Positions 31,600 through 44,816 of a stretch of 64,000 nt of DNA are shown one piece after another. Source of the stretch: a virus. Every line of letters begins with the position of its first letter. Within the stretch, counting starts at the first letter, position 1. Both the position numbers and the translations under genes were made by a program. The notes beneath the pieces are model-generated. The model was given only the letters and a program-made list of their open reading frames with translations, was not told the DNA's origin and did no database searches. The stretch lies in the IMG/VR virus record IMGVR_UViG_3300014158_000003, positions 32,001-96,000 of that record. One strand, 5' to 3'.

Positions 31600-33498
31600 G
31601 TGCCCGTCCACTCCCGCGGCCGCGGGTGCTACCAGTGGGGCCAGCACGGCAAGGTCTACTGCGGCCCCGGCGCCCGCCAGAAAGCCGAGCGGCAGGGGCG
31701 GGCGGCGCACGCGCGCGGGTACGGCCTGCGCGAACCGTCGAGCGACTGGGAGGACGCGCTCGTCCGCGGCGACGCGCGCTACGTCCCCGCTGGTGTCGCA
31801 CCGCAGATGCCGGGCGTCGTCGCGCGAGCGCGCGCGGCCGGCGCGCGCCCACCGCTCGAGTACGTGGGCGCCGGGATGACCGGCGTCGTCCTCTGCGCCG
31901 GCGACGTCGCGTACAAGGTCGCCCGGGACACGCGCCCGATCGACCACCAGTTCTTCGAGGAGGAGGCCGATTGGCTCGCGGCGGCCTCGCAGGTCCCCGC
32001 GGTCGCGCCGCACGTCGCGCACCTGCACGACTTCGACCCCGAGAGCCTCGTCATCGTCCGCGACTGCGTACGCGCCGACCCGGAGCAATCCGCGTGGCGG
32101 TACGGCGAGGGCAAGCTCCACGACCTGCACCGACAGATCGAACGGGACATGATCCCGTACGGCTGGACCGCGCCAGAGTTCAAGCCGGACAGCTATGTGC
32201 TGACGACCCGCGGGCCCGTGCTCGTCGATGCGTCGATGCCGTCCCGGGTCGGCAATGAGCTCGCGCAATACGTCGAGGCGGTCGTCGCCGACGAGCGGCC
32301 GCTCTGGACGACTCGGCCCGAGGACCTGGCGTTCGCGGTCCGGATGGAGGCTGGACGAACGCTCACGCAGGAGGAGTCGGACCGGCTCGAGGCGATGATC
32401 GCGCGTCGGTGGTCTGCGCGTGCCGGTGAGGTGAGGGAGCGGCGCTTGCGTGAAGTGCGTGAGCCGAATCTGTCGTACTTGCTCGGGCCCATGGGAACGA
32501 TCCGGGCCATCGGTCACGAGGACGGTCCCGAACCGCCGACGAACGGGATCGCACGATACCGATCCGAGCACGGTAGCTACCGGTACGTCTACTACGTCCG
32601 CGGCGAACCGGTGAGCGCCATCCAGGTGATGGCGCGCGACAAGAAACACGGTCGCGTCGCGAACGTGTGGACGGCTCCGCACGCGCGTCGAAACGGATAC
32701 GCGACCAAGCTTATCCAGCAAGCCAGGAAAGATTTCAAGACTGTCGAGCACTCCGACGCCCTGTCAGCGGACGCAGTTGCGTGGATTGATCGAGTCGGAG
32801 AGGCGCGAACCGTTCTCGCCGAGAACAGCGACTGGATACTCGTGGCGCCGCTCGCGCAAGCGCAGATCTTGGGCGGTGCCTACCTTGCGAGTTCCGACGG
32901 CCGATTTGTCATCTTCGCTCGCCGGTATCGCGTCGGCGACAAGGGTCGCCGCGAGTACCGAATCGAATTTCAGACCGTCGAGTATCTGGGCGGTGACTCT
33001 AGGAGAGGTGGCGAAAACCGAACCCTCTATGAGGGGCAGAATCTAGCCGTTCTCCAGGGTCGGGCCCGAAGATCGCCTCGTACGCGGCACGCGGCAGCAA
33101 GATGCGCATTTCAACGACCGGATCGTTGGCGCTTATCGTCTCGTCTCTCGGACCCTCGCGCTCTGCGAGACGCTGGACCCGATCGGGGATCTTGGCCGAA
33201 GCGAGCATCTCGGGCGCGCCCCGCATCAGCGCGCGCACTTCGGACGGGGTCCTGGGCGAGCGAGTCACAGCAGCCCTTCCGAGGCATTGTCCTGCCAGAT
33301 TGTTGCCGCACGGATGTACCCGAGAGCCACGCGCTCCGACTTGTGCCTGGTCTGCTTCATGATACTCGCCAGGGACTTCCCCTTGATCGCTGCGGTCGTC
33401 GCGAAACCAGATCGGAGCGAGTGACCCGACACGAGATCGGCGTCGAGGCCGGCACTCTTCGCCAAGCGCTTGACGATCTCCGAGGCGGTCCGATCTGA
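31600..33498 (+). CDS. polyvalent protein: kinase-like plus GNAT domains (C-terminal ~80 aa overlap the recombinase gene)
   Basis: VGAGMTGVV..AYKV..EEEA..FKPDSY..LVDA kinase-like; VANVWTAPHARRNGYATKL GNAT motif A. Confidence 0.7.
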   Translation: MPVHSRGRGCYQWGQHGKVYCGPGARQKAERQGRAAHARGYGLREPSSDWEDALVRGDARYVPAGVAPQMPGVVARARAAGARPPLEYVGAGMTGVVLCAGDVAYKVARDTRPIDHQFFEEEADWLAAASQVPAVAPHVAHLHDFDPESLVIVRDCVRADPEQSAWRYGEGKLHDLHRQIERDMIPYGWTAPEFKPDSYVLTTRGPVLVDASMPSRVGNELAQYVEAVVADERPLWTTRPEDLAFAVRMEAGRTLTQEESDRLEAMIARRWSARAGEVRERRLREVREPNLSYLLGPMGTIRAIGHEDGPEPPTNGIARYRSEHGSYRYVYYVRGEPVSAIQVMARDKKHGRVANVWTAPHARRNGYATKLIQQARKDFKTVEHSDALSADAVAWIDRVGEARTVLAENSDWILVAPLAQAQILGGAYLASSDGRFVIFARRYRVGDKGRREYRIEFQTVEYLGGDSRRGGENRTLYEGQNLAVLQGRARRSPRTRHAAARCAFQRPDRWRLSSRLSDPRALRDAGPDRGSWPKRASRARPASARALRTGSWASESQQPFRGIVLPDCCRTDVPESHALRLVPGLLHDTRQGLPLDRCGRRETRSERVTRHEIGVEAGTLRQALDDLRGGPI

Positions 33499-34164
33499 AA
33501 TCGGGAAGATCCTCCCCTCGGCGATCCCAGCCTCGGCGAGGTATTTCCAAAGCGCTCGGACCGGGCAGAGCGGTCCGCGCCCCATTGAAACACCGCAAAC
33601 CTGCCCTTCGCCTTCTTGGTCCGTCTTCGAGCTCCGTAACGTGACCATCAAGCCGTCCGGGCTGAACACGACGTCGTCAACGACCAGGGCGACGAGCTCC
33701 GACCGACGCAGGGCGGCAGCCCAGCCGAGGAGCACGAGCGCGCGATCCCTGGCGCTGGCGTTCAAGAGCATCGCAGCGAGGTCGGTGTCCTGTAGGGGGG
33801 TAGCCTTGCGCTGCGCGGTACGCAGCTTTCGACGCAGACCTTTGAGCGTCTCGCGGATCGCGGGGTGGTCCGGCCACTCCACGGCCGCGTCCTTGTGCGC
33901 CCGACGGAGGGCGGAGACCGCCCGGTCGATGGTCGCGATCTTGTGATCCAGGCTCAGGTGGGCCAGATACGCCACGATCGTCTCTGGACGGGCCGGGAGC
34001 GTCGCGAGGCCGTGAGGAGCTGCCCATGCTTGAAAAGCCCGCCAGTCCGCCGCGTAGCCTCGGCGCGTGGCGCTGGTGCGCTTGGCCTCCGCCGCTTCGG
34101 CGGCGATGGCGAGGAGAGACGGGAGAGAGTGTGTGGAAACGAGCGCATTCGCCTTGTCCGCCAT
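33265..34164 (-). CDS. Cre-like tyrosine recombinase
   Basis: TRRGY..W..F N-domain; ALRRSEL, SKTDQ, HSLRSG, TRHKS and GY catalytic residues. Confidence 0.93.
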   Translation of the reverse strand: MADKANALVSTHSLPSLLAIAAEAAEAKRTSATRRGYAADWRAFQAWAAPHGLATLPARPETIVAYLAHLSLDHKIATIDRAVSALRRAHKDAAVEWPDHPAIRETLKGLRRKLRTAQRKATPLQDTDLAAMLLNASARDRALVLLGWAAALRRSELVALVVDDVVFSPDGLMVTLRSSKTDQEGEGQVCGVSMGRGPLCPVRALWKYLAEAGIAEGRIFPISDRTASEIVKRLAKSAGLDADLVSGHSLRSGFATTAAIKGKSLASIMKQTRHKSERVALGYIRAATIWQDNASEGLL

Positions 34165-34500: not shown

Positions 34501-35433
34501 CTATGCGAGCCCCGCACTGACCCGCTGCCGCTGGATCCGCGTCCGGACGTCCTCCGGGTCGACCCAGCTCGCCGGCGCGCCTGCGGGGCGCCAGTAGACC
34601 GAACAGGCCACTAAACCGTCGGCGATGACGATCCACGCGCCCGCGCGCGGCAGCTCAGGTGGTTGGCCGGACTGCTGCCAGCGCAGAAAGAGGGCGCGTG
34701 CAGCCTCCGCCGGAGTGAGTCCGACCAGCATGGGGGCACCGCACGGCAGGTAGATGTTCGCGGTCCTGCCAGAAAGGACAATGAGTCCGCTTGCTTCGGC
34801 GAGCGCGCCGTCGAGGGGGAACGTGCGGATCCGGATGTCACCGAGCGCGATGTCATGCGACACCGACTCCAGCGGCTCGATCGCCTGCTGGACGAGTCGC
34901 GCGAGTCGCAACCGTTCCGCCGACGTGTCCGGCGACCCGACCGACGGGTGCGCTGGCGAGGATCCCGGCGAGCCACCCGCTGGGTGCCACGGGGGCGCTG
35001 CTGCGGGGTGGCCCGGAGGTTGACCTGGGGACCAGCCTACGGGGTCACCCTGCGGGTAACCTGGGAACTGTCCCGCAGGTTGACCCGCGGTCGGCTCGGG
35101 AGAACCTGGCGAGATCCTGCGGACCATCCAGAGATGGCCCACTCGCTCGACATAGCCGAGCGCCCCAAGCCTGTGCAGCAGCGCGTTGCCCGCGAGCGAG
35201 TGGCTCCCGCGCGATCTCGGGCTCCCGCTGCGGTCCAGTCGGTCCGGCCACATCTTCATCGAGAAGTCGGCCGCCGATAGAGCCCCGCTGCGGAGCACGT
35301 CGATCGCTCGACTGACTTCGGCCGGTTTCAGGTCGTACACGCCATCGCCAGGATAACGCGTGAGAACCTCAGCGCAATACTGGCGTGCTAGGTTGCTGGT
35401 CTCTCGGGGGCGCGGGAGGTTCTCGGAGAACAT
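34501..35433 (-). CDS. hypothetical protein (start uncertain)
   Basis: wHTH-like LLHRLGALGYVERVG followed by a P/G linker. Confidence 0.5.
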   Translation of the reverse strand: MFSENLPRPRETSNLARQYCAEVLTRYPGDGVYDLKPAEVSRAIDVLRSGALSAADFSMKMWPDRLDRSGSPRSRGSHSLAGNALLHRLGALGYVERVGHLWMVRRISPGSPEPTAGQPAGQFPGYPQGDPVGWSPGQPPGHPAAAPPWHPAGGSPGSSPAHPSVGSPDTSAERLRLARLVQQAIEPLESVSHDIALGDIRIRTFPLDGALAEASGLIVLSGRTANIYLPCGAPMLVGLTPAEAARALFLRWQQSGQPPELPRAGAWIVIADGLVACSVYWRPAGAPASWVDPEDVRTRIQRQRVSAGLA

Positions 35434-35818
35434 GGACATCACTGCGCCGCCGAAAGAGCTGCAGATCGCCTTCTGCACCACCTGCAAGGGCCGAACTCCC
35501 CACATCCGGGAGACGCTGCCAGTCAACCTGCATGGCAACGCGCGGGCCCGGTTCGTCCTCGTCAACTACAACAGCCCCGACCAGCTCGACGATCTGCTCC
35601 GCGAGCGGCACATGGGCGACATCGATAGCGGCCGACTGAGCGTCTACCGGTTCACCGAGCCAGGACCGTTCCGGATGGCGCACGCCAAGAACCTAGCCCA
35701 TCGATTGGCGATCTCAGAGGGAGCGGACATCCTCGTGAACCTAGACGCGGACAACTTCGCTGGGCAGGCTTTCGACGCGTACGTGGCCGAGCGGCTCAGC
35801 GCACACGTTGACGATTGA
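35432..35818 (+). CDS. glycosyltransferase family 2 N-terminal domain (probably truncated)
   Basis: IAFCTTCKGR..LVNYNSPD..AHAKNLA..NLDADN (DxD); GGAG RBS; only 128 aa. Confidence 0.75.
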   Translation: MDITAPPKELQIAFCTTCKGRTPHIRETLPVNLHGNARARFVLVNYNSPDQLDDLLRERHMGDIDSGRLSVYRFTEPGPFRMAHAKNLAHRLAISEGADILVNLDADNFAGQAFDAYVAERLSAHVDD

Positions 35819-35866
35819 CGATTCTATTTGCGCGACTCCATAACGTGAGCTAAGGGTTCCTCTGCG

Positions 35867-35983
35867 ATGAAACGCGCCGGCTCAACAGCCACGTATACCG
35901 AGCGGTCCGAAAGGGCTGCCTGGGACACGTGCGCCGTCGTGATCGGGCGCCCTTTCCAGAGCAATCCGGGTCACACCATGTAG
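35867..35983 (+). CDS. putative attenuator leader peptide MKRAGSTATYTERSERAAWDTCAVVIGRPFQSNPGHTM
   Basis: 38 codons covering 19 amino acids (no Leu); stop codon abuts an antiterminator strand. Confidence 0.7.
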   Translation: MKRAGSTATYTERSERAAWDTCAVVIGRPFQSNPGHTM

Positions 35984-36022
35984 GGCAGCTTCGCGAATAC
36001 GCAACGTAGCGCGAGGCCGCCC
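35983..36022 (+). promoter_or_regulatory. antiterminator helix
   Basis: GGGCAGCTTCGCG (35983-35995) pairs with CGCGAGGCCGCCC (36010-36022), 12 of 13 pairs including one G-U; overlaps the terminator 5' arm. Confidence 0.7.
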
Positions 36023-36047
36023 GGAGAAGACCCGAGGCGGCTTTTTT
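36014..36047 (+). terminator. attenuator terminator just before the first tRNA
   Basis: GCCGCCCGG-agaagac-CCG(A)GGCGGC-TTTTTT. Confidence 0.85.
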
Positions 36048-36053
36048 CATTTC

Positions 36054-36131
36054 GGGTCGAGCGCTGGGACGCGACGGTGTCTGTAAAACACTGGCTTTCA
36101 TGCTCGCTGGGTTCGATTCCCAGGCGACCCA
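36054..36131 (+). tRNA. tRNA-Tyr(GTA)
   Basis: Loop ctGTAaa, TTCGATT T-loop, short D-arm. Confidence 0.8.
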
Positions 36132-36178
36132 CGAGGAGAGGAGGACACGATGAAACGCACCGGTCCAAAAGAAAGCGA

Positions 36179-36250
36179 GGGACGTTAGCTCCAGGGCGGA
36201 GCGGCAGCCTTTTAAGCTGCGCGGGCCGGGTTCGATCCCCGGGCGTCCCA
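36179..36250 (+). tRNA. tRNA-Lys(TTT)
   Basis: gcagc ctTTTaa gctgc. Confidence 0.9.
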
Positions 36251-36260
36251 CGACCCACGC

Positions 36261-36331
36261 GCGCCGGTAGCTCGAAGGTCGAGCAGGTGGCTCTTAACCA
36301 CTCGGCGAGAGTTCGATTCTCTCTCGGCGCA
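36261..36331 (+). tRNA. tRNA-Lys(CTT)
   Basis: ggtgg ctCTTaa ccact. Confidence 0.9.
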
Positions 36332-36332
36332 C

Positions 36333-36399
36333 TGGGGATTCGATGGTCGACAGGTGGTCTCTGAAGCCGCCGACGGTGGTTCGATTCCACCATCCCCAA
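36333..36399 (+). tRNA. tRNA-Gln(CTG)
   Basis: Loop ctCTGaa; tggggat/atcccca acceptor stem. Confidence 0.85.
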
Positions 36400-36403
36400 C
36401 CGA

Positions 36404-36438
36404 TGGCCCGACGCACACGGGCTATTCGCTCCTTGACA
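36404..36438 (+). promoter_or_regulatory. boxB-boxA-like antitermination signal
   Basis: Hairpin TGGCCCG-acgcaca-CGGGCTA then CGCTCCTTGACA (rrn boxA is TGCTCTTTAACA). Confidence 0.5.
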
Positions 36439-36522
36439 ACCTGGACGCACGTGACGCGCGGGCGCGAGCTCGCGGGCGGTCTCTGCGAAGTCACGACGCG
36501 CGGGCACGTAGCCGCGCAACAT

Positions 36523-36594
36523 TGCGATGCAGCATGAAGGTCATGCGCCCGGCTGTTAACCGGAGAGAAGCGGGTTCGACTCCTGCCTTCGCAG
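36523..36594 (+). tRNA. tRNA-Asn(GTT)
   Basis: ccgg ctGTTaa ccgg. Confidence 0.85.
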
Positions 36595-36600
36595 CTCGAC

Positions 36601-36669
36601 GCCGTCTTGTACCTGGGGTCAACGCGCTCTCGTAAGGCGCGTGGCGGGGTTCGAATCCCCGAGGCGGCT
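36601..36669 (+). tRNA. tRNA-Thr(CGT)
   Basis: gcgct ctCGTaa ggcgc. Confidence 0.8.
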
Positions 36670-36674
36670 CTCAC

Positions 36675-36747
36675 GTCCCGTTCGACTTCTTGGGCAGGTC
36701 GCCGGATTCTCGATCCGGACAGAGGGGTTCGAATCCCCTACGGGACG
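36675..36747 (+). tRNA. tRNA-Glu(CTC)
   Basis: ccgga ttCTCga tccgg. Confidence 0.9.
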
Positions 36748-36752
36748 CTCTT

Positions 36753-36824
36753 GGTCCGCTTTCTCCTGGTGGGGTGGTCGGATTTTCAACTCGACTTCGA
36801 CGGGTTCGATCCCCGTGCGGATCA
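36753..36824 (+). tRNA. tRNA-Glu(TTC)
   Basis: Loop ttTTCaa, imperfect anticodon stem. Confidence 0.7.
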
Positions 36825-36835
36825 CGAAGTAGTAC

Positions 36836-36908
36836 GCCGCGAGAGCTGGTGAGGTCATAGCGCCCGGTTGAAGCCCGGGAGAACTCCGCTCGATACGGAG
36901 TCGCGGCA
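36836..36908 (+). tRNA. tRNA-Phe(GAA)
   Basis: cccgg ttGAAgc ccggg. Confidence 0.85.
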
Positions 36909-36919
36909 CGAAGTGGTAT

Positions 36920-36991
36920 CAGGGTGAGGTGTTTGTGGTAGCACGCTCCGTTCGGGCCGGAGTGGTGCGGGTTCGACTCCCGCCGCCCTGA
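36920..36991 (+). tRNA. tRNA-Pro(CGG)
   Basis: ctccg ttCGGgc cggag. Confidence 0.88.
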
Positions 36992-36993
36992 CT

Positions 36994-37070
36994 GTGACCG
37001 TGGTGTAGTGGTTTCTGCACGGCTGGTTGTGGCCCAGCAGGTACGAGTTCAATCCTCGTCGGTCACCCCA
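36994..37070 (+). tRNA. tRNA-His(GTG)
   Basis: gctgg ttGTGgc ccagc; encoded CCA. Confidence 0.9.
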
Positions 37071-37071
37071 C

Positions 37072-37143
37072 CTCCTCGTCCCGCCGGATGCGGGCGGCGC
37101 ACTCCTAAGGCGCACGTGCCGGGTCCGACTCCCGGCGAGGAGA
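37072..37143 (+). tRNA. tRNA-Arg(CCT)
   Basis: Loop ctCCTaa; ctcctcg/cgaggag acceptor stem. Confidence 0.8.
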
Positions 37144-37149
37144 CGAAAT

Positions 37150-37222
37150 GCCCCGTGACGCGCCTGGTGGCGCGGTCAGCTTGTCACGCTGCGCGAGACG
37201 GATTCGATTTCCGTACGGGGCG
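37150..37222 (+). tRNA. tRNA-Asp(GTC)
   Basis: cagc ttGTCac gctg. Confidence 0.82.
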
Positions 37223-37230
37223 CTGCGCCT

Positions 37231-37298
37231 GGGTCCATGCATCGGATGCAGCTCGGTCTCCAAAACCGAGGATGAGGGTTCGACTCCTTCTGGGCCCG
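37231..37298 (+). tRNA. tRNA-Trp(CCA)
   Basis: ctcggt ctCCAaa accgag. Confidence 0.85.
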
Positions 37299-37308
37299 CG
37301 AAGTAAAC

Positions 37309-37379
37309 GGGCTGCTCGTCCAACGCGAGGACACCGCTTTCGCACTGCGGAGATGGGGGTTGGATTCCCCCGCGGTCCA
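37309..37379 (+). tRNA. tRNA-Ala(CGC)
   Basis: Loop ttCGCac; G3:U70 pair in the acceptor stem. Confidence 0.8.
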
Positions 37380-37387
37380 CTGGCTTT

Positions 37388-37458
37388 GCCCATGTCCGAC
37401 GGTCGGGCTCCTCCTCGGTAAGGAGGCGCTGCGGGTTCAACTCCCGACGTGGGCTCCA
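37388..37458 (+). tRNA. tRNA-Thr(GGT)
   Basis: cctcc tcGGTaa ggagg; encoded CCA. Confidence 0.8.
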
Positions 37459-37460
37459 AC

Positions 37461-37528
37461 GCCGATCGGTCCAGGGACCACGGCCCCTTTGTATGGGCCA
37501 CAGACGCGTTCGATTCGCGTGATCGGCT
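37461..37528 (+). tRNA. tRNA-Thr(TGT)
   Basis: Loop ttTGTat (register slightly ambiguous); gccgatc/gatcggc acceptor stem. Confidence 0.7.
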
Positions 37529-37532
37529 CCGT

Positions 37533-37603
37533 GCGGGTGTAGGTGACGGTCACCGGCGCGCCTTCCAAGCGTTGCTACCCGGGTTCGATTCCCGGCATCC
37601 GCT
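37533..37603 (+). tRNA. tRNA-Gly(TCC)
   Basis: Loop ctTCCaa; U73. Confidence 0.82.
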
Positions 37604-37617
37604 CTGACGCTATTTGC

Positions 37618-37689
37618 GCGGGCGAGTCGGCAAGGTGCCGAGCGTGGTTGCCATCCACGTCCAGGCGAGTTCGATTCTCGTCGCCCGCT
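37618..37689 (+). tRNA. tRNA-Gly(GCC)
   Basis: cgtgg ttGCCat ccacg. Confidence 0.85.
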
Positions 37690-37694
37690 CTAGT

Positions 37695-37763
37695 GAGCCG
37701 ATCTTCCGGCGAAGGACGCTGATTGCAACCTAGCGAAGCCCGGTTCAACTCCGGGTCGGCTCT
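37695..37763 (+). tRNA. tRNA-Cys(GCA)
   Basis: Loop ttGCAac; U73. Confidence 0.75.
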
Positions 37764-37795
37764 CCGGGCGAGGCGCAGCGATGCGCCGAGCCTGC

Positions 37796-37866
37796 GCGCT
37801 CGTCCCGGCGGATCCGGGCATGGCACTTCTAAGGCCGTTGACTCGTTTCGACTACGAGCGAGCGTT
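37796..37866 (+). tRNA. tRNA-Arg(TCT)
   Basis: Loop ctTCTaa. Confidence 0.75.
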
Positions 37867-37868
37867 CC

Positions 37869-37941
37869 CTCGTCGTTCCGGCGGATTTCCGGACCGGAGT
37901 TTCCGAAACTTCGTGCCCGGGTCCGACTCCCGGCGACGAGA
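37869..37941 (+). tRNA. tRNA-Arg(CCG)
   Basis: cggagt ttCCGaa acttcg. Confidence 0.8.
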
Positions 37942-37942
37942 C

Positions 37943-38012
37943 CTCCCTGCCAGCGGACCTGGCGTCGACGCTACGAACGTTGATTGCGGCCGTTCAACTC
38001 GGTCCAGGGAGA
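37943..38012 (+). tRNA. tRNA-Arg(ACG)
   Basis: tcgacg ctACGaa cgttga. Confidence 0.8.
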
Positions 38013-38013
38013 C

Positions 38014-38089
38014 CGCGGGGTGGCGTAGATTTAGTCGCCAGGTGGGCCCATAACCCTCCCGATGCCGGATGCAACACCGGTCTCCGCAA
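38014..38089 (+). tRNA. initiator-like tRNA-Met(CAT)
   Basis: C1:A72 mismatch; GGG/CCC closing the anticodon stem; atypical T-loop. Confidence 0.7.
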
Positions 38090-38091
38090 CC

Positions 38092-38161
38092 GCCGACGAC
38101 GACCGGGATCGAGCGCGCTCTCATAAGGCGCTGCAGTGGGGTTCGACTCCCCACGTCGGCA
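38092..38161 (+). tRNA. tRNA-Met(CAT) (elongator or Ile2)
   Basis: gcgct ctCATaa ggcgc. Confidence 0.8.
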
Positions 38162-38162
38162 C

Positions 38163-38230
38163 CGGAGGATACCTGGCGGGAGCATGCGCCCTACAAGCGC
38201 GAGCGCGGGGTCCGATTCCCCGGCCTCCGA
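38163..38230 (+). tRNA. tRNA-Val(TAC)
   Basis: gcgc ccTACaa gcgc. Confidence 0.7.
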
Positions 38231-38231
38231 C

Positions 38232-38310
38232 CGGACGCGTGCCTAAGCCGGCGGTCCCGGCGCACGTCTTATGAGCGTGTGGCTCGAGGGTTCAACTCCT
38301 GCGCGTCCGA
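38232..38310 (+). tRNA. tRNA-Ile(TAT)
   Basis: gcacgt ctTATga gcgtgt; cggacgc/gcgtccg acceptor stem. Confidence 0.65.
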
Positions 38311-38316
38311 CTCAAT

Positions 38317-38388
38317 GCGAGGCATGGCTGCTGGTGCAGCCACCGGCTCGACACGCCGGCTAGGAGGGTTCGATCCCCTCGCCTCGCA
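38317..38388 (+). tRNA. tRNA-Val(GAC)
   Basis: ccggc tcGACac gccgg. Confidence 0.85.
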
Positions 38389-38390
38389 CC

Positions 38391-38462
38391 CCGCCCAGAG
38401 GCCCGGTTGGCCTGCGATTGCTGATAACGATCGCGCGCTGCGTTCAACTCGCAGTGGGCGGA
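38391..38462 (+). tRNA. tRNA-Ile(GAT)
   Basis: gcgattg ctGATaa cgatcgc. Confidence 0.82.
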
Positions 38463-38486
38463 CAACGTGCTAGATCGAACCGCGCG

Positions 38487-39008
38487 ATGGAACCGCAGAC
38501 GCTCGTGCTCACCCCGCACATGACTCCCCACCGGATCGCCGGTTGGCAGGAAGCGATCGTGCTCGTCTACACGGACAAGGTCGACGTGCTCGAGGAGTAC
38601 GAGGCGACGATCTCGAGCCCGTCGGTGACGTTGCAGGTGCCCGCGGTGCTGCGCCTGCGCAAGGAGATGTCGCTCTTCAAGAAGGGCACGAAGTACAGCC
38701 CAGCGAACGTCATGCTCCGTGACAAGCACACGTGCTGCTACTGCGGCCAGAAGAAGCGGCCGCGCGATCTCAACATCGACCACGTCGTCCCGCGCGCGCA
38801 GGGCGGCAAGACGACGTGGCTGAACTGCGTCTCCTCGTGCCCGAGCTGCAACCGCCGCAAGGGGGCGCGCACGCCGGCGCAGGCAGGACTGAAGATGCAC
38901 TTCCAGCCGCACGTGCCCAGGCAGTTGCCGTTCGCGCCGCTGCTGCTCATCGCGAAGGTGCCCGACCTATGGGTCCCCTACCTGTCGGCGAGCGCGCAGA
39001 CGGCGTAG
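38487..39008 (+). CDS. HNH endonuclease (McrA-like) within the tRNA array
   Basis: RDKHTCCYCG..NIDHVVPRAQGG..WLNCVSSCPSCNRRKG. Confidence 0.92.
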   Translation: MEPQTLVLTPHMTPHRIAGWQEAIVLVYTDKVDVLEEYEATISSPSVTLQVPAVLRLRKEMSLFKKGTKYSPANVMLRDKHTCCYCGQKKRPRDLNIDHVVPRAQGGKTTWLNCVSSCPSCNRRKGARTPAQAGLKMHFQPHVPRQLPFAPLLLIAKVPDLWVPYLSASAQTA

Positions 39009-39019
39009 CAAAAAAGTTT

Positions 39020-39110
39020 GGAAGGTACCGCTGAATGGTCGGCAATCCGGTTCGAACCCGGAGGCGTGGTGTAACCCATCACGGGCGTTCGATTCGTCTA
39101 CTTTCCGCCA
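39020..39110 (+). tRNA. tRNA-Ser(CGA)
   Basis: tccgg ttCGAac ccgga; long variable arm; encoded CCA. Confidence 0.88.
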
Positions 39111-39123
39111 ACGTGAAAGCACT

Positions 39124-39208
39124 GGAAGAGGAACCGCGCGGGGCGCGGGCCGGTTTGCTAAACCGCGCGGCGGCATGAGCCGCTCTGGGTCGGGACCAGT
39201 CTCTTCCT
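39124..39208 (+). tRNA. tRNA-Ser(GCT)
   Basis: Loop ttGCTaa; long variable arm. Confidence 0.78.
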
Positions 39209-39219
39209 CCGTTGCGTCG

Positions 39220-39302
39220 TGCCTCGAGCGGGACTCGAACCCGCAAGCTCCGAAGAGCGGCGATTTTTAGGACCGCCTGGTCTACCGTTCCTCCACCGAG
39301 GC
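39220..39302 (-). tRNA. tRNA-Leu(TAA)
   Basis: Loop ccTAAaa; long variable arm. Confidence 0.85.
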
Positions 39303-39307
39303 CCTCG

Positions 39308-39388
39308 TACTCCGGGCGCGAGTCGAACGCGCATGCCTTGCGGCACCCGATCTTGAATCGGGCGTGGATACCGTTTCACCACCGGAGC
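39308..39388 (-). tRNA. tRNA-Leu(CAA)
   Basis: cccga ttCAAga tcggg. Confidence 0.9.
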
Positions 39389-39398
39389 ATTCACTTCG

Positions 39399-39481
39399 TA
39401 CGCGGGGAGGGAGTTGAACCCTCACGCCCTCTCGGGCACGACCACCTCAAGGTCGCGTGACTGCCATTCCACCACCCGCGT
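39399..39481 (-). tRNA. tRNA-Leu(GAG)
   Basis: cgacc ttGAGgt ggtcg. Confidence 0.9.
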
Positions 39482-39554
39482 GGGTAGTGGGTCAGTTTGA
39501 GTTTCGCGTCATGACGCGCTTGCGTGACCGGTCAAGCATGGTCAAGCTCGCGGC

Positions 39555-39872
39555 ATGGCGATTCTACGTGAGCGTGTGGCGTGGTCGAAGCCGAGGGCTA
39601 GGCGTGGTCCGGACCTGAGCCCAGACGAACAGAAGGCGGTCAAGAAGGCTCTTGCGTTCCTCGCCAAGCGCCACGGCTCCCTCGTGAAGCTGTCCGCCGC
39701 GATGGGCCTGAAGCCAGACGCGGTCGTCCATGCGGCCAGAGAGCGCGGGAGCGTTACGGCGGGCGTCGCGCTCCGGGCTGCTCGCGCTGCCGGAGTGCCT
39801 CTGGAAGACCTCCTAGCCGGCCGGTGGCCCGAGGCTGGCACTTGCCCTCTCTGCGGCCGGAAGGCAGGATGA
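39555..39872 (+). CDS. XRE-like HTH protein
   Basis: SLVKLSAAMGL..VTAGVALRAARAAGVPLEDLL; terminal CPLC. Confidence 0.7.
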   Translation: MAILRERVAWSKPRARRGPDLSPDEQKAVKKALAFLAKRHGSLVKLSAAMGLKPDAVVHAARERGSVTAGVALRAARAAGVPLEDLLAGRWPEAGTCPLCGRKAG

Positions 39873-39876
39873 AGGC

Positions 39877-40143
39877 GTGCCTAAGCGGTCAAGCAAGAGC
39901 CCGAAACGCCCGACGGACGTGAACTCGCTGGCGGCGTCGATCGTCGCGGCGGCAACCGACGAGACGCCCCCGGAAGAGAAGGCCGAGCCGACACCCGAGG
40001 AACTGGCGCACGCGGCGGCCGTGGCCCTCGGAAGGCTCGGTGGATTGAAGGGCGGAAGAGCGCGAGCGGAGAGTCTGTCGAAGAAGAAACGTAGTGACAT
40101 CGCCAAGAAAGCGGCGAAGGCGAGGTGGAGCGCAAAGCCGTGA
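39877..40143 (+). CDS. small basic protein of the kind often found beside IS1-like transposases
   Basis: KRPTDVNSLA..AAVALGRLGGLKGGRARAESLS..AKKAAKARW. Confidence 0.8.
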   Translation: MPKRSSKSPKRPTDVNSLAASIVAAATDETPPEEKAEPTPEELAHAAAVALGRLGGLKGGRARAESLSKKKRSDIAKKAAKARWSAKP

Positions 40144-40170
40144 CGCGTTCGCGATTGACGAGCCGGACCG

Positions 40171-41172
40171 TTGCGTGATCGCATGCATCGTCAAATGCCT
40201 GAGGACGAAAAAAAGCCGCCGTACATCAAGCAGCCGGCCAAGGACGATCAGCGTCCATTTCAGCGCGTGCTGAGCGAGCACGATCTATTTGCTTCGCAGC
40301 GATTGACCCGGCGTGGCCTGCTTCAAAAAATCGAGGCCGAGACGACCGGTGAGAGGTCCGCCACCATCGGCTTCATTGGCCGCGGCGCGATCGATCCCAG
40401 AGACATCACGGCCTTTGGCGATGTCCTGATGTCGGTCGGTGATGTCGATGTCCTCAACCTGATCATCGATAGTCCTGGCGGCGACGGTTCTACGGCGGAG
40501 AAACTGATCGAACTGTGCCGCGCCTACTGCAAGACTTTCCGGGTAATGATCCCTAACCGCGCAAAGAGTGCGGGCACGATCATCGCGCTCGGCGCCGATG
40601 AGATCGTGATGGGGCACTGCTCCGAATTGGGTCCAATCGACGCGCAGGTGCCTGTGATCGTGGGCGAGATCCCTCGATACATCTCGGCACAGTCGTTTAT
40701 CGACGCTCAGTTGGATCTACAGGCTGAATTTGCAAAGCGCATCGCCGCGAATGGAAAGGCGGACGTGCGCGACATCCTGCAACAACTTGCCGCGCTCAAC
40801 CTGCCGTTTATTGACCACTGCAAGAAACTCATGGGCTTCTCGCGTGACGTTGCAGAGAAGAATCTGGCCGCGCACATGTTTCGGGATGTTCAGCCCGATG
40901 CCGAGCGCAACCAAAAGGTTGCAAAGGTCATCAAGGGGCTCTCGCATCCAGAGAACTTTCAGGTGCACTCGCGAATGATCGACGGCAACACGGCCAAAAC
41001 CAAGCTGGGGCTAAATGTGCGGCTTCTCGGCAAAGACGACGAACTGTGGGCCGCGATCTGGCAGTACTACATTCGCGCGGACGTTTTTCTCTCGGGCGCC
41101 CACGGCCCCGGGGCGTCTAAGCTGGTCGAATCACGGGTGGAGAGCCTACATCTAACGGCGGAACTGGAATGA
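40171..41172 (+). CDS. ClpP/SppA-class serine protease (SDH-like); start uncertain
   Basis: IIDSPGGDG..AKSAGTIIALGADEIVMG..SELGPIDAQ. Confidence 0.85.
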   Translation: MRDRMHRQMPEDEKKPPYIKQPAKDDQRPFQRVLSEHDLFASQRLTRRGLLQKIEAETTGERSATIGFIGRGAIDPRDITAFGDVLMSVGDVDVLNLIIDSPGGDGSTAEKLIELCRAYCKTFRVMIPNRAKSAGTIIALGADEIVMGHCSELGPIDAQVPVIVGEIPRYISAQSFIDAQLDLQAEFAKRIAANGKADVRDILQQLAALNLPFIDHCKKLMGFSRDVAEKNLAAHMFRDVQPDAERNQKVAKVIKGLSHPENFQVHSRMIDGNTAKTKLGLNVRLLGKDDELWAAIWQYYIRADVFLSGAHGPGASKLVESRVESLHLTAELE

Positions 41173-41411
41173 CTATTGCTACGCGAGAGGGGACCATGAA
41201 CCGACCGACCGATAACCAGAATCCGGATGGCCACAGCTCCGAGGTCAGTCAGGCGCTGGAACTGTTCAACAGTACAGATGCAGCGCGGGACGCCGCTACA
41301 GCTCTGGAGGTGATGCGCTTGGCTGGTGCTAGCCGACGTGCGCGCACAGAACGCCGGTTCAGTCTGTCCATCAGTGGCGGGTATGTTCGATGCGAGGACG
41401 ACGGCGCTTAA
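41169..41411 (+). CDS. small hypothetical protein
   Basis: ATGA overlap with the protease gene. Confidence 0.45.
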   Translation: MTIATREGTMNRPTDNQNPDGHSSEVSQALELFNSTDAARDAATALEVMRLAGASRRARTERRFSLSISGGYVRCEDDGA

Positions 41412-41528
41412 AGTCGCTGTTGACAATTTGTCGCTGTCGATGACCCTACAGGGGCAATGCAGTCACGATGACAGTCAAAGTGAACCGGATGCTTGACTGA
41501 GCCTCAACGGTCAAGCATACTGTCCAGT

Positions 41529-42401
41529 ATGAACACGCTGGACGCCGCCACCCGCACCCGCATCGTCTCGGCCCTGGTCGAGGGGAACTCGATCCGCGCG
41601 ACGTGCCGCATGACCGGCGCGGCGAAGGGCACCGTCTTGAAGCTCCTGGCGGACCTCGGCGCCGCCTGCCGCGCGTACCACGACGCGAACGTGCGCGGCC
41701 TGCACTGCAAGCGGCTCCAGTGCGACGAGATCTGGTCCTTCTGCGGCGCCAAGGACAAGAATGTCCTGCCCGACGAGGAAGGCTTCGGGCGCGGCTCGAT
41801 CTGGACGTGGACCGCGCTCGACGCGGACACGAAGCTGATCGCCGGCTACCACATCGGCACGCGCGACGCTGGCTGCGCCTACGAGTTCATGACCGACCTC
41901 GCGTCACGCATCGAGACGCGCGTGCAGCTCACGACCGACGGACACAAGGCGTACATCAACGCGGTCGCCGACGCGTTCGGGCCGTCGAATATCGACTACG
42001 CGATGCTCGTGAAGCTGTTTGGCGAGACGCCGGCCGGCGCAGGTCGCTACAGCCCGCCCGCGTGCATCGGGATCGAGATGCGCCCGATCATGGGCGAGCC
42101 GGACATGGAGCACGTGTCGACCTCGTACGTCGAACGCCAGAACCTCACGATGCGGATGTCGATGCGCCGGTTCACGCGGCTCACGAACGCGTTCTCGAAG
42201 AAGTGCGAGAACCTCGCGCACGCGGTCGCGCTCCACTTCATGCATTACAACTTCTGCCGCGTGCACCAGACGCTCCGCGTGACGCCGGCCATGGCCGCGG
42301 GGCTCACGGATCATGTGTGGGAGATCGGCGAATTGATCGCGCTCATGCCGAAGCCGGTCGCGAAGCCGTGGGGGAGCGTGAAGCGCGCGGCGGTCGCCTG
42401 A
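41529..42401 (+). CDS. IS1-family DDE transposase
   Basis: N-terminal HTH; LQCDEIWSF, LTTDG, VERQNLTMR, HYNF. Confidence 0.92.
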   Translation: MNTLDAATRTRIVSALVEGNSIRATCRMTGAAKGTVLKLLADLGAACRAYHDANVRGLHCKRLQCDEIWSFCGAKDKNVLPDEEGFGRGSIWTWTALDADTKLIAGYHIGTRDAGCAYEFMTDLASRIETRVQLTTDGHKAYINAVADAFGPSNIDYAMLVKLFGETPAGAGRYSPPACIGIEMRPIMGEPDMEHVSTSYVERQNLTMRMSMRRFTRLTNAFSKKCENLAHAVALHFMHYNFCRVHQTLRVTPAMAAGLTDHVWEIGELIALMPKPVAKPWGSVKRAAVA

Positions 42402-42405
42402 TCGG

Positions 42406-42798
42406 TCAACGCTGCGGCACCTTTGCCTTGAAGCCTCGCGGGGTGAATTGCGAACGGTGGAGCCCGATCCGCATCCTAGATAGGAGCGCGTCTGCAATGC
42501 ACGTCTGTTTGCGGCCTGGTTGCAACGTATCGGTGTCCCCGGCCTCTACCTCTCGAAGGCCTCGGTAGAACACGTAGCTTTCGTGGGTGATGAACGGGTG
42601 CGCGTCCGGATCGCCGGGGCGAAGGATGCACGAGCGGTCCACGAACCTATCCACCGTCGTGACGTTCACGATCGTGGCGCACACCGCGAGCGAATAGTCG
42701 GGCGTGTAGACAGCCAGGACGACCCACAGGTGATCGACGACCGCCGTCTTCGACGGGTTGAGCAGAAACGCATCCCCCGCCTCGACGGTTCCCCTCAC
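42406..42798 (-). CDS. putative toxin (PemK/MazF-like) paired with the Panacea antitoxin
   Basis: GDAFL..HLWVVL..VNVTT..HPFITHESYV; coupled to the upstream antitoxin. Confidence 0.55.
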   Translation of the reverse strand: MRGTVEAGDAFLLNPSKTAVVDHLWVVLAVYTPDYSLAVCATIVNVTTVDRFVDRSCILRPGDPDAHPFITHESYVFYRGLREVEAGDTDTLQPGRKQTCIADALLSRMRIGLHRSQFTPRGFKAKVPQR

Positions 42799-43376
42799 GA
42801 CGAATGGATCAACCTATCGACTGCTGCGAGATACTTTGCGCGCTTGGCGCGATCGCTGATTGCTTCGTCGTTCTCGCCGACCGCGCGGAGAATGTCAGCG
42901 GCCGGCAATGGTGCAACCTTCGCGGGCTTGGGGTGCTTCCACTCCGGAAGCCCGTGGACCACGTCGATCAGATGCGTGTATGAAACACGCTTATACTTCT
43001 TCGCGAGATCTGTCAGAACGCCGACGTCGTAATCCGAAAGCTGATCGTCGCCCGGGTCCTCTACAAGCTCGACGTTGTAGCCTTGGGTGCGGATGCAGTG
43101 GTCCCAAAGACTGTCGGCGACCTCGACCTCCCCCTTGATGCAGTTGTAGACCTCACTCAGAACAGGCCCGTTCGCCATGGACACGAACGTAGAGCCGGTG
43201 ATCGGCTGACCGGTCTCGATCAGCGATTGCCTGTCGGCGAGGTACAGCTCCTTCAGGATGGACGTGTAGTTCTCGGTACCACCAGCCTCGCGCAGGAGAA
43301 CGGCAGCAGCTTGCACGGCTCGACGTTCGTCAAACCGGAACCTGAGTTCGCCCCCCGCTTCCAATAGCATCGTCAA
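42795..43376 (-). CDS. Panacea/DUF4065 (SocA-like) antitoxin
   Basis: LKELYLADR..GQPITG..GPVLSEVYN..HGLPEW. Confidence 0.85.
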   Translation of the reverse strand: MTMLLEAGGELRFRFDERRAVQAAAVLLREAGGTENYTSILKELYLADRQSLIETGQPITGSTFVSMANGPVLSEVYNCIKGEVEVADSLWDHCIRTQGYNVELVEDPGDDQLSDYDVGVLTDLAKKYKRVSYTHLIDVVHGLPEWKHPKPAKVAPLPAADILRAVGENDEAISDRAKRAKYLAAVDRLIHSS

Positions 43377-43511
43377 CCACCATCTACCGATCCGCGCCTG
43401 CCCACGCGTTCAGGCTAACGCTAACGTATGACATCTGCAAGCCTCAATGCTTGAGCGGTCACGCAACGCGCCGCGTCAGCCCAACTCAAACTGACCCACT
43501 ACCCCCGCGTG

Positions 43512-43579
43512 TCCGGGCCGAGGGGATCGAACCCTCTTCGCCGGATTCAAAATCCGGCTCCCCACCATGGGTGGCCCGA
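43512..43579 (-). tRNA. tRNA-Gln(TTG)
   Basis: ccgga ttTTGaa tccgg; short D-arm. Confidence 0.8.
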
Positions 43580-43580
43580 G

Positions 43581-43663
43581 TGCGTTGGGAGGGAGTTGAA
43601 CCCTCACGACCTTGCGGTCACTGCGGTCTGAACGCAGCGCGGATACCGTTTCGCCACCAACGC
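43581..43663 (-). tRNA. tRNA-Leu(CAG)
   Basis: ctgcg ttCAGac cgcag; long variable arm. Confidence 0.9.
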
Positions 43664-43684
43664 GCGTGACTCTGTCACCAGCCC

Positions 43685-43735
43685 CTATAAGGGCAGGACA
43701 AGACGCAAGCGTTGCGATAGGCGGAACGTGTGCAC
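43685..43735 (-). CDS. putative Leu/Gln-sensing leader peptide MHTFRLSQRLRLVLPL
   Basis: GTG CAC ACG TTC CGC CTA TCG CAA CGC TTG CGT CTT GTC CTG CCC TTA TAG, ending 21 nt before tRNA-Leu(CAG). Confidence 0.65.
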   Translation of the reverse strand: MHTFRLSQRLRLVLPL

Positions 43736-43775
43736 GACGGGGATAACACTGACACGTCTCCGAGCAGCGCGCAAG

Positions 43776-44129
43776 CTACGCCCCCTCGATCGCGCCCCCG
43801 CGGACGTGGAAGTGCGCGCCGCACCCATCCCCGGTGAGCCGGACGCTCGACGAGCCGGCGACGAGCGTCAGGTCGTCGAGGCTCGTTCCCACAAATTCCC
43901 ACCGGCCCGGCTTCGGGTCAACGTCGGGCGGCACGCGCGGGCGCCAGCAGATGACCGCGTGCGTGCCGACTCGGCCGCCGTTGGCCTCGAAACACTTGGG
44001 GCAGTAGAAACACACCCCGTCGGCGTCCTCGATGCGGTCGACGACGCGGTGGCCCTCGCCGCCGTCGACGACCTCGCGGCGGATGAACCCGAAGCAGTCG
44101 TCGGCGTCGACGAGGTCGCGGAGCCTCAC
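43776..44129 (-). CDS. small Cys/His metal-binding protein
   Basis: FYCPKC..H..CGAHFHVRGG. Confidence 0.7.
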   Translation of the reverse strand: MRLRDLVDADDCFGFIRREVVDGGEGHRVVDRIEDADGVCFYCPKCFEANGGRVGTHAVICWRPRVPPDVDPKPGRWEFVGTSLDDLTLVAGSSSVRLTGDGCGAHFHVRGGAIEGA

Positions 44130-44374
44130 TCGTCGGCCTCCAGCTTGTCGAGTCGCGCGATCTGGTCGCACAGTCGCCTGCGCGCGCAGCGCCAGGAGCA
44201 GGCGTCGAAGTGCTCGCTCGCCGACGCGCGCTCTCCAGACCGACCGTCCGCAACCGACAGCATCACGATGAGGCCGTTCGTGTTGCGCGGGGAGGTCACC
44301 GCGATGGAGTTCCCGCAGACCGCGCACGCAATCGGCTCGGCCTCGCGAGCGACGGGGGACCCCTTGCGCCTCAT
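44126..44374 (-). CDS. small zinc-finger protein
   Basis: CAVC..CSWRC; overlapping start/stop junctions. Confidence 0.6.
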   Translation of the reverse strand: MRRKGSPVAREAEPIACAVCGNSIAVTSPRNTNGLIVMLSVADGRSGERASASEHFDACSWRCARRRLCDQIARLDKLEADE

Positions 44375-44781
44375 CGCGCCTTTGGGCGCCTCGCCAGCCC
44401 CTCGCGCACCCCCTGCGTCACGAGCGTGAGCTCCTTCGGGCTCAGCGTGGCGCACGTCGCGATGAGCCTGGTGACCGTGCGCGCGCTCACGGCCGTCCCG
44501 GCGCGCTCCGGGTGGGGCGCCACCGGCGGCAGCTTGGGTAGCGGAGGCAGCTTGGTCTCGTCGATCTTGCCCGCGGCGTCGTGGGGCACGCTCACCTTGA
44601 GCGTGCCCTTCGCGATCCCGGCGCGCACGCCGGCCGTGACGGCCGCGAGCTCCGGGTCGTTGAGCGAGAGCGCCATCGCGACGCAGTGGGCGACGAGCGC
44701 GAGGTCGGGGTCCACGCGGGCGGTCTTCTTCTTCGCGCGGATCGCTTCCCGGAAGGCGGTGACGGCGGCGGATTCGGGCAT
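44371..44781 (-). CDS. hypothetical protein
   Basis: MPESAAVTAFREAIR...; ATGA coupling. Confidence 0.6.
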   Translation of the reverse strand: MPESAAVTAFREAIRAKKKTARVDPDLALVAHCVAMALSLNDPELAAVTAGVRAGIAKGTLKVSVPHDAAGKIDETKLPPLPKLPPVAPHPERAGTAVSARTVTRLIATCATLSPKELTLVTQGVREGLARRPKAR

Positions 44782-44816
44782 GCCTGGGAGGGTAGCACCG
44801 TGCACAGCCGCCCGCA

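Follow-up and report, generated by a model that had tools for sequence, protein, structure and literature searches.

A candidate translation-coupled conditional terminator in the leader of phage tRNA genes

Introduction

How does a phage that carries a dense array of transfer RNA (tRNA) genes control their transcription? The question is raised by a stretch of viral DNA, 64,000 nucleotides (nt) long and referred to below as the window, that corresponds to bases 32001-96000 of a 117,319-base IMG/VR record (record G000, G+C content ∼68%). The plus strand of the window holds an array of 29 tRNA genes (36054-39210, located with ARAGORN) that together serve 19 amino acids, with no gene for Leu, and immediately upstream of the array is a leader that contains a 38-codon open reading frame (ORF, 35867-35983) and, beyond it, an intrinsic terminator. 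An earlier note on this DNA had interpreted the leader as an attenuator, built like those of the trp and his operons, that senses nearly all tRNAs. Such broad sensing is not supported by the present analysis, in which the match of codons to tRNAs is at chance level; nor is the proposed protector helix predicted to form. Rather, we infer, tentatively and on a statistical basis, that the region 35852-36047 could be a conditional intrinsic terminator that heads the plus-strand array and is coupled to translation of the 38-codon ORF.

Phage tRNA arrays have been discussed as a means of overcoming host defenses in which tRNAs are cleaved or depleted, and also of correcting mismatches in codon usage, and to our knowledge the way in which they are switched on has been little studied. 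In those parts of the literature that were available to us no attenuator is described in front of a tRNA array, which is weak evidence of absence. If the switch considered here is real it represents a new variant of ribosome-mediated attenuation. This mode of control would then extend to tRNA genes, and the leader would be a natural sensor of general translation stress. The locus lends itself to a specific and inexpensive test of whether a noncoding operon can be controlled through translation and, should the switch not be real, it would still be a clear example of the assembly of a tRNA island by mosaic joints in a temperate phage.

Results and Discussion

The terminator (plus strand, 36015-36047) is formed by a G+C-rich stem of 9-10 base pairs (bp) with one bulged A, in which 36015/16-36024 pairs with 36032-36041/42, followed by six T residues at 36042-47. 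The earlier note had placed a terminator with a U-tract at 36014-36047, and in this it was correct. A simple consensus scan for terminators missed the element because of the bulge. Runs of five or more T residues are few in this genome (19 and 21 on the two strands), and 15 of them, that of the leader included, are accompanied by a hairpin of −10 kcal/mol or lower. The terminator ends 6 nt before the tRNA-Tyr gene (start 36054), leaving no room for a promoter in between, and therefore at least the first four genes of the array, those for tRNA-Tyr, Lys, Lys and Gln, need read-through in order to be transcribed.

Overlapping the terminator is a second hairpin (plus strand, 35983-36022) in which 35983-35995 pairs with 36010-22 through 12 bp, enclosing an inner stem of 4 bp. 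Its predicted free energy of −26.2 kcal/mol makes it stronger than the terminator, for which −16.5 kcal/mol is calculated for the stem alone and −20.6 kcal/mol when the U-tract is included. The 5' arm of this hairpin begins at the last base of the TAG stop codon of the ORF (35981-35983), and its 3' arm shares positions 36015-22 with the 5' arm of the terminator; the antiterminator that had been proposed here, exclusive of the terminator, is thus confirmed by the energy calculations. In order to judge how unusual such a competitor is, upstream sequence was shuffled, and the terminator was lost from the minimum free energy structure in 3.4%, 7.6% and 5.4% of 500 shuffles when 60, 100 and 164 nt upstream were randomized, respectively, and in 89 of 1200 shuffles in a second test. 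An ORF stop within −10 to +6 nt of the 5' end of an antiterminator was found in 3 of 1200 and 3 of 1000 shuffles, and the three features together, that is, the amino acid diversity described below, the competing hairpin and the position of the stop, in none of 1200.

Predicted folds of transcripts with 5' ends between 35840 and 35975 give the antiterminator with a probability (P) of 0.90-1.00. For a start at 35852, masking the footprint of a ribosome at the stop codon (35963-35996 or 35966-35993) changes the predicted fold to the terminator, and with masks centered at 35879, 35900, 35921, 35942 or 35960, or with no mask at all, the predicted fold is the antiterminator. Folding with and without a ribosome footprint, as the earlier note had proposed, is in keeping with its suggestion that a ribosome at the stop codon would mask the antiterminator. 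The protector helix that was to form between 35913-35920 and 35984-35991 has a pair probability of 0.0 in six folds, and forcing it costs ∼19.5 kcal/mol, because 35913-23 is locked in local pairing with 35898-35908. The two segments make up a 10-bp hairpin (plus strand, 35898-35923) that contains the supposed protector strand. With no protector helix the leader does not have the geometry of the trp and his attenuators.

These folds suggest how the element might operate. In a transcript that starts at ∼35840-35866 the hairpin 35983-36022 would fold as soon as it is made, taking up the 5' arm of the terminator, and polymerase would read on into the tRNA-Tyr gene and the remainder of the array. 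Should a ribosome arrive at the TAG codon in step with polymerase, it would instead cover 35983-35995; the antiterminator would be blocked, the terminator would form and transcription would end just ahead of the first tRNA. The element would be OFF with fast translation and ON with slow, stalled or absent ribosomes; termination would require that translation of the ORF be completed while ribosome and polymerase keep pace, and in this way the element would act as a general translation sensor. A leader with many kinds of amino acid would respond to a greater variety of stalls, although only the amino acid count speaks for a design of this kind. Three features would, with some reserve, speak for a switch when taken together: a terminator that leaves no room for a promoter, a stronger hairpin that extends from the stop codon, and an ORF whose frame, length and stop recur in two homologues.

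The candidate leader peptide ORF (plus strand, 35867-35983) runs from ATG to TAG over 38 codons, with the sequence MKRAGSTATYTERSERAAWDTCAVVIGRPFQSNPGHTM. As had been claimed, its translation contains 19 types of amino acid and no Leu, and these are the same 19 that are served by the plus-strand tRNAs identified by ARAGORN, among which Leu is likewise missing. At least 19 types occur in 0.25% of the 147,143 stop-free 38-codon windows of the genome, in 2 of its 131 ORFs of 33-43 amino acids (aa) and, when the body of the ORF is shuffled, in 0.6% of mononucleotide and 1.2% of position-specific shuffles. Measured against random ORFs, a comparison that the earlier note had called for, the diversity is therefore rare. 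Rarer still is the combination of 19 types with no Leu (0.002% of genome windows; 0.01-0.05% of composition-matched shuffles). Dinucleotide shuffling of the whole leader produced an ORF of at least 25 codons with 19 types anywhere in 30 of 1000 and 13 of 1200 cases.

A phmmer search with the 38-aa product against 1.84 billion representative proteins returned four matches at E ≤0.001, of which three were discounted as long repetitive proteins with 4-7 matched stretches each. The protein P0063 (63 aa, E 2.7e-5), encoded on a JGI contig of 1322 nt, covers query residues 2-38, and a word search with it led to P0064, which is encoded on a Logan contig of 3710 nt and is 78% identical to it. Both align with the product of the window ORF (P0001) without gaps from a Met, which is Met24 in each homologue, over 14 codons to the block ERAAWDTC; there follow IGR or IDR, a 2-codon in-frame indel, QSNPGH[TA]M and then the stop. 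The blocks ERAAWDTC and QSNPGH do not vary among the sequences (3/3). Counted from Met24, P0063 and P0064 each have 40 residues, with 19 types and no Leu; Leu does occur in their 23-residue N-terminal extensions, in which the two proteins resemble each other less. Judged from these alignments, the homology of the ORF is real but thin: there are three sequences, two of them close to each other, and the homologues are known as proteins only.

How well do the codons of the ORF match the array? The earlier note had counted 31 plus-strand tRNAs. With its default threshold ARAGORN finds 23 (36054-39110), which already serve the 19 amino acids and do not include Leu, and with a relaxed threshold it finds 29, two more appearing only at a very lax setting. 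By simple wobble rules and with the 29 tRNAs, 27 of the 38 codons are cognate, as compared with 25.0±2.4 in shuffles (P 0.27) and with 76% of codons in the long ORFs of the phage itself, so that the correspondence of codons and anticodons that had been described does not exceed chance. With respect to individual codons the earlier note was right that GCC/GCT, TCA/TCC and CCT have no cognate tRNA, and mistaken in regarding CGC, which occurs twice, and ACA as matched. Altogether the codons with no tRNA in the ARAGORN set are GCC (four times), GCT, CGC (twice), TCA, TCC, CCT and ACA, and none of the five Ala codons is served.

The Leu tRNAs of the locus are on the opposite strand. Three (UAA, CAA and GAG; minus strand, 39219-39481) are convergent with the plus-strand array, and tRNA-Leu(CAG) and tRNA-Gln(UUG) (minus strand, 43511-43663, ARAGORN) head the minus-strand unit, for a total of four Leu tRNAs and Gln(UUG). 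In front of the latter pair lies the 16-codon tail of a minus-strand ORF (43685-43735, MHTFRLSQRLRLVLPL) with five Leu codons, all of them different, and CAA, a composition found in 1 of 2343 sixteen-codon tails genome-wide. The tail has a GTG start, no Shine-Dalgarno sequence and no terminator, and in 5000 shuffles of the local 112-nt spacer at least five Leu were obtained in 21% and at least five different Leu codons in 2.7%. It is thus ordinary under local shuffling (2.7-21%), and we rejected this Leu-rich minus-strand "leader" as independent support.

The leader is not of one piece. The gene that precedes it encodes a GT2-type glycosyltransferase (plus strand, 35432-35818) that is truncated, retaining the N-terminal half through the DADN motif. 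Homology to the intact proteins, which are 218-265 aa long (alignment A1) and on which PF10111 is annotated, ends near 35801; the window protein has no Pfam match of its own. It is followed by a 102-nt piece (plus strand, 35808-35909) that comprises a tandem TTGACGA (x2), AAGGG, the ATG and the beginning of the ORF (14 codons), and that exists as an exact copy in a second context. This emerged from a comparison, over the leader region, of contigs from four public runs, lake and wetland runs among them. Contigs of the runs X4, X9 and X18, which come from three studies, carry 35808-35909 exactly, with flanks that are unlike those of the window on both sides, and contigs with the window's own context stop at 35807. 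In X4 the depth is 9.7 on the 102-nt piece versus 4.4 and 4.68 beside it, placing the second context near the depth of the phage itself. The piece occurs once in record G000, and the flanks of the other context were found neither in that record nor in any locus compared. For the near-identical strains sampled by the lake and wetland runs, none of the variants listed falls between 35696 and 36354. No RNA data set is listed among the sequencing runs.

Because the second context of 35808-35909 is exact the ORF spans a joint at 35909/10, a position that coincides with the apex of the local hairpin 35898-35923. As read from these sequences, then, the ORF is a mosaic, with its first 14 codons contributed by the 102-nt piece and its last 24 common to the two metagenomic homologues, whose identity to the window ORF is 3/14 residues before the joint and 19/24 after it. 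In 185,579 species genomes a 32-mer of the 102-nt piece has no match, IMG/VR holds neither a 60-mer of the leader nor a 35-mer of the terminator (0 matches each), and no longer protein sharing the N-terminus of the ORF was found at E ≤10, which is weak evidence.

A number of observations weigh against a conditional terminator, the mosaic make-up of the locus among them. All of the rarity statistics are post hoc, calculated for a site that had already been picked by a pattern-seeking reader. The native stop is at +7 by the automatic definition of the script, just outside the window of −10 to +6, because a 2-bp extension at 35976-77 is counted, and at 0 by the main helix; moreover, in the test with 1000 dinucleotide shuffles, which started at 35819, the native sequence itself lacks the antiterminator. 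The outcome of the modeled folding hinges on the 5' end of the transcript. For 5' ends at 35808-35830 the terminator has P 0.84-0.93, at 35760 terminator and antiterminator are even, and at 35700 it is again the antiterminator that prevails (P 0.94). The terminator wins for 5' ends at 35808-35830 because an upstream strand (plus strand, 35830-35841) pairs with 35978-35989 and so occupies the 5' side of the antiterminator, and since this strand lies outside the ORF stalling could not relieve such termination. The Shine-Dalgarno sequence is weak (AAGGG, with a 10-nt spacer to the ATG), it and the ATG are both paired in both predicted folds, and the protein collection has no gene call for the 38-aa ORF. 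No promoter-like site was found in 35700-35866 by a sigma-70-type consensus scan. The best candidate read by hand, TTGACG (35815-20), 18 nt and CATAAC, would give a start near 35850, and TTGACGA is not a repeated promoter motif in this genome. The chance-level codon match of the ORF belongs here as well, as does the fact that retention of 19 types and no Leu in the homologues has P ∼0.08 under a crude null in which 22 conserved positions are kept and 18 residues are random. The high C-terminal identity may reflect recent common descent of the mosaic segment rather than selection. Finally, the closest complete relative, G006, has 0 tRNA matches and no leader match, and provides no comparison of leader plus array, and among the loci compared no relative that combines a tRNA array with this leader was found.

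Can the locus be explained without a switch? An ordinary terminator that leaks, located at a mosaic joint and sensing nothing, with the ORF, its diversity and the competing hairpin as by-products, is about as possible as a conditional terminator; the two are within uncertainty and effectively tied, and the conditional terminator is ranked first because it accounts jointly for more features. In the simpler scenario the glycosyltransferase gene would have been cut at ∼35801-35807 and joined to the 102-nt piece, to which a further segment, supplying the remaining 24 codons along with hairpins and terminator, would then have been joined at 35909/10. The terminator would end or insulate a short upstream unit, and the tRNAs would be made from leak-through or from unrecognized starts. 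Joints at 35807/8 and 35909/10, with the glycosyltransferase truncated exactly there, fit this well, as do the absence of the island from the closest relative, the preference for the terminator once upstream sequence is part of the transcript, the weak and paired ribosome-binding site of an ORF that is not called as a gene and whose codons match at chance, and the identities of 3/14 versus 19/24, as expected for a mosaic segment of recent descent. Yet such a scenario leaves unexplained a hairpin of −26 kcal/mol that overlaps the terminator (3-8% of shuffles), the start of that hairpin at the stop codon, a Met whose distance to the conserved block is exactly 14 codons in each of the three sequences, and the first four tRNAs, which have no other evident start. 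A further suggestion concerns the 102-nt piece itself, which might be the core of an attachment site or a within-genome repeat, its 14 codons then copying the start of another gene. We consider this somewhat unlikely, and it is compatible with any of the other readings, a downstream switch included. The unlike flanks on both sides, the exact identity in three runs of three studies and the depth similar to that of the phage argue for it, as does a tyrosine integrase gene 1.6 kb away, and with record G000 cut at its right end and the product of the neighboring gene seen on a contig of 148,905 nt a second copy may lie in the missing part; however, a relative with an 87%-identical integrase lacks the piece, neither its 32-mer (185,579 species genomes) nor the 60-mer (IMG/VR) was found elsewhere, and no longer protein that shares the N-terminus came to light, the last being weak evidence.

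The leader could also be a free-standing small unit, either a structured RNA or a protein of 38-40 aa, with start signals and a terminator of its own and merely located upstream of the array. The fold of 35820-36055 (z = −2.46; 6 of 200 shuffles fold as well), the invariance of ERAAWDTC and QSNPGH in 3/3 sequences and similar layouts at two other phage loci, L115 and L157 (see below), are all in keeping with this, but we regard it as quite improbable. No Rfam family is matched at its gathering score, the best being RcsR1 with 22.3 bits versus 60 (E 0.66), the peptides match no Pfam or PHROG family and have Atlas scores <0.9, there is no room for a second promoter between the terminator and tRNA-Tyr, and the antiterminator would weaken the unit's own terminator. 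A full pan-tRNA sensor is, finally, a subset of the conditional terminator in which each amino acid served from the plus strand has at least one codon in the leader and Leu has none, and in which a matching Leu-rich leader precedes the minus-strand Leu/Gln unit. That P0001 and, from the aligned Met, P0063 and P0064 have 19 types and no Leu, that this combination is so rare in genome windows (0.002%) and shuffles (0.01-0.05%), and that the Leu-rich tail combines five different Leu codons with CAA (1/2343 genome-wide) speak in its favor. Nevertheless it is unlikely: 27/38 cognate codons is what chance gives, with Ala (five codons), CGC (two), TCA, TCC, CCT and ACA left with no tRNA, the Leu-rich tail with its GTG start, no Shine-Dalgarno sequence and no terminator is ordinary under the local null, and the homologues are not independent of one another. 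An early stall in the ORF and the absence of translation moreover give the same predicted fold, and therefore codon identity adds little to the mechanism. Equally doubtful is the proposal that the phage keeps ∼29 backup tRNAs silent behind the terminator, to be opened when the 38-codon ORF, with its sample of 19 amino acids, is left unfinished; the array would then respond to tRNA cleavage, to starvation or to poisons of translation, as an on-demand counter-defense sensor.

How would a conditional terminator of this sort relate to systems that are already known? Like the trp, his, leu and pheA attenuators it has a short ORF upstream of an intrinsic terminator and a hairpin that excludes the terminator, and as in amino acid operons the excluding hairpin has a 5' arm that a ribosome standing at the stop codon would cover. 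In contrast to those operons there is no run of regulatory codons and no protector (1:2) helix within the ORF, the only anti-antiterminator strand being upstream of the ORF; tRNA genes rather than biosynthetic enzymes lie downstream, and the default in the absence of translation would be read-through. Leaders of resistance genes (erm, cat/cml, mef/mel, vmlR) contain specific arrest peptides and usually terminate when uninduced. The present leader has no known arrest motif and its cargo consists of arrayed tRNA genes, unlike in resistance-gene attenuators, with which the element would have in common that it responds to an overall slowing of translation and not to a single amino acid. As in ribosome-stalling attenuators of the erm, cat/cml, mef/mel and vmlR type, insofar as the available part of the source describes them (PMC4335068), the output would depend on completion of the leader ORF.

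The cargo and its setting have parallels of their own. Moron-type units of temperate phages consist of a promoter, a gene and a terminator, and the present locus resembles them in being a short unit near an integrase gene, with a factor-independent terminator, that is absent from a relative; it differs in that the gene is truncated and the terminator is overlapped by a stronger hairpin. The tRNA array units of phages and mycobacteria, as far as the accessible portions of two reports go (PMC5966550, PMC12803027), are similar in that a mobile element carries a dense block of ∼30 tRNA genes, which covers most amino acids and encloses a homing-type HNH gene. Those portions mention no regulatory leader (PMC5966550, PMC12803027), and, unlike the units they describe (PMC5966550, PMC12803027), the array studied here is in a ∼9-kb island that is missing from the closest relative.

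Possible leader units precede two other phage tRNA arrays. The HNH gene, used as an anchor, yielded one distant relative, L115, an unrelated low-G+C phage locus whose array of 29 tRNAs is likewise unrelated. At 2438-2690 of L115 a promoter-like TTGACA..TATACT is followed by a leader of 200 nt and by a terminator ∼15 nt before the first tRNA. The leader has z = −4.3, with 0 of 200 shuffles folding as well, and no Rfam match, and its terminator has a probability of 0.41 to 0.99 depending on the 5' end; by analogy it may be a comparable unit. In L157, a phage record of 202,882 bases with 27 matches to RF00005, 25 of them over the cut-off, two terminators and three promoter-like sites occur in tandem before the array (1549-2183) and bound a unit of ∼150 nt, in the order promoter-like site, ∼150 nt, terminator, the array's own promoter-like site, array. 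A terminated leader unit at the head of phage tRNA arrays may thus be a recurrent arrangement, although three cases prove nothing.

Searches for closer comparisons were made from several directions. Against GenBank phages, megablast and blastn with the region gave no similar leader and only tRNA-Asn in 4 records; of the tblastn searches of phages with P0001 and P0063 one gave no match and one a chance match at E 0.7 inside a DNA polymerase gene, and P0063 has 0 matches in IMG/VR. A search of species genomes with the peptide alignment (A2) pointed to a single locus, L159, which is spurious, being of low G+C content with no tRNA and only an 8-residue pattern match. Among the matches listed, tblastn of the three peptides against the fetched loci returned only L001, the window's own stretch. 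Relatives of the glycosyltransferase (32 IMG/VR and 80 metagenome loci) have tRNAs in 4 of 112 cases, none with an array directly downstream and none with a leader match, and the use of an SDH-protease-like gene and a 636-aa structural ORF as anchors produced no relatives.

The wider setting is that of a phage that, from its gene content, is temperate, as marked by a tyrosine integrase gene (minus strand, 33265-34164; PF00589, 44.7 bits, E 8.1e-13) whose product is 87% identical in amino acid sequence to those of L116 and L117. Record G000 also carries collagen-like tail-fiber genes, an HNH endonuclease gene and an IS1-like transposase gene; no serine recombinase was found in it. When the integrase was used as an anchor for the closest relatives 41 loci were obtained, and the two close ones, L116 and L117, have no tRNAs within 8 kb. 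The closest complete relative, G006 (locus L116; 117,665 bases), is the one that carries the 87%-identical integrase of L116, and in it the homologues of the window genes 44371-44883 and 34501-35565 (both minus strand) are adjacent, at L116 5924-6337 and 6348-7172 (tblastn), with no tRNAs or leader, and therefore the tRNAs and the leader of the window sit in a lineage-specific island of ∼9 kb. The approximate borders of this accessory island are 35400-44370. It carries genes on both strands, namely the truncated glycosyltransferase gene, the leader, the plus-strand tRNAs together with the HNH endonuclease gene that interrupts them (plus strand, 38418-39008), the minus-strand Leu/Gln tRNAs and the IS1-like transposase gene. 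The last of these is an ORF for an IS1/IS240-type DDE transposase (41493-42401) located between the two parts of the minus-strand tRNA unit.

The CheckV estimate for the completeness of record G000 is 100%. Despite this the record is probably not the whole genome, because a frame is cut at its right end and because the product of the gene adjoining the leader, the glycosyltransferase, is seen on a contig of 148,905 nt. The interrupted frame has 331 codons and is coding-like, with G+C fractions of 0.67/0.44/0.91 at the first, second and third codon positions.

With the Rfam tRNA model many members of the array receive low scores (∼30-58 bits), and several are detected by ARAGORN only; for comparison, the tRNAs of L115 score ∼40-74 bits, all but two at 46 or above. 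In the tRNA-Tyr of the array the D region is shortened, and the anticodon of one Ile tRNA is UAU. A near-repeat of the start of the leader ORF lies between tRNA-Tyr and tRNA-Lys, 36148-36171 being identical to 35865-35888 at 20 of 24 positions. Within 36148-36186 the near-repeat heads a 12-codon ORF (MKRTGPKESEGR) whose Shine-Dalgarno sequence, GGAGGA, 5 nt before the ATG, is much better than that of the leader, and whose stop overlaps the first bases of tRNA-Lys. By a rough estimate the chance expectation for a 24-nt near-repeat of this kind is ∼0.1 matches per 4 kb.

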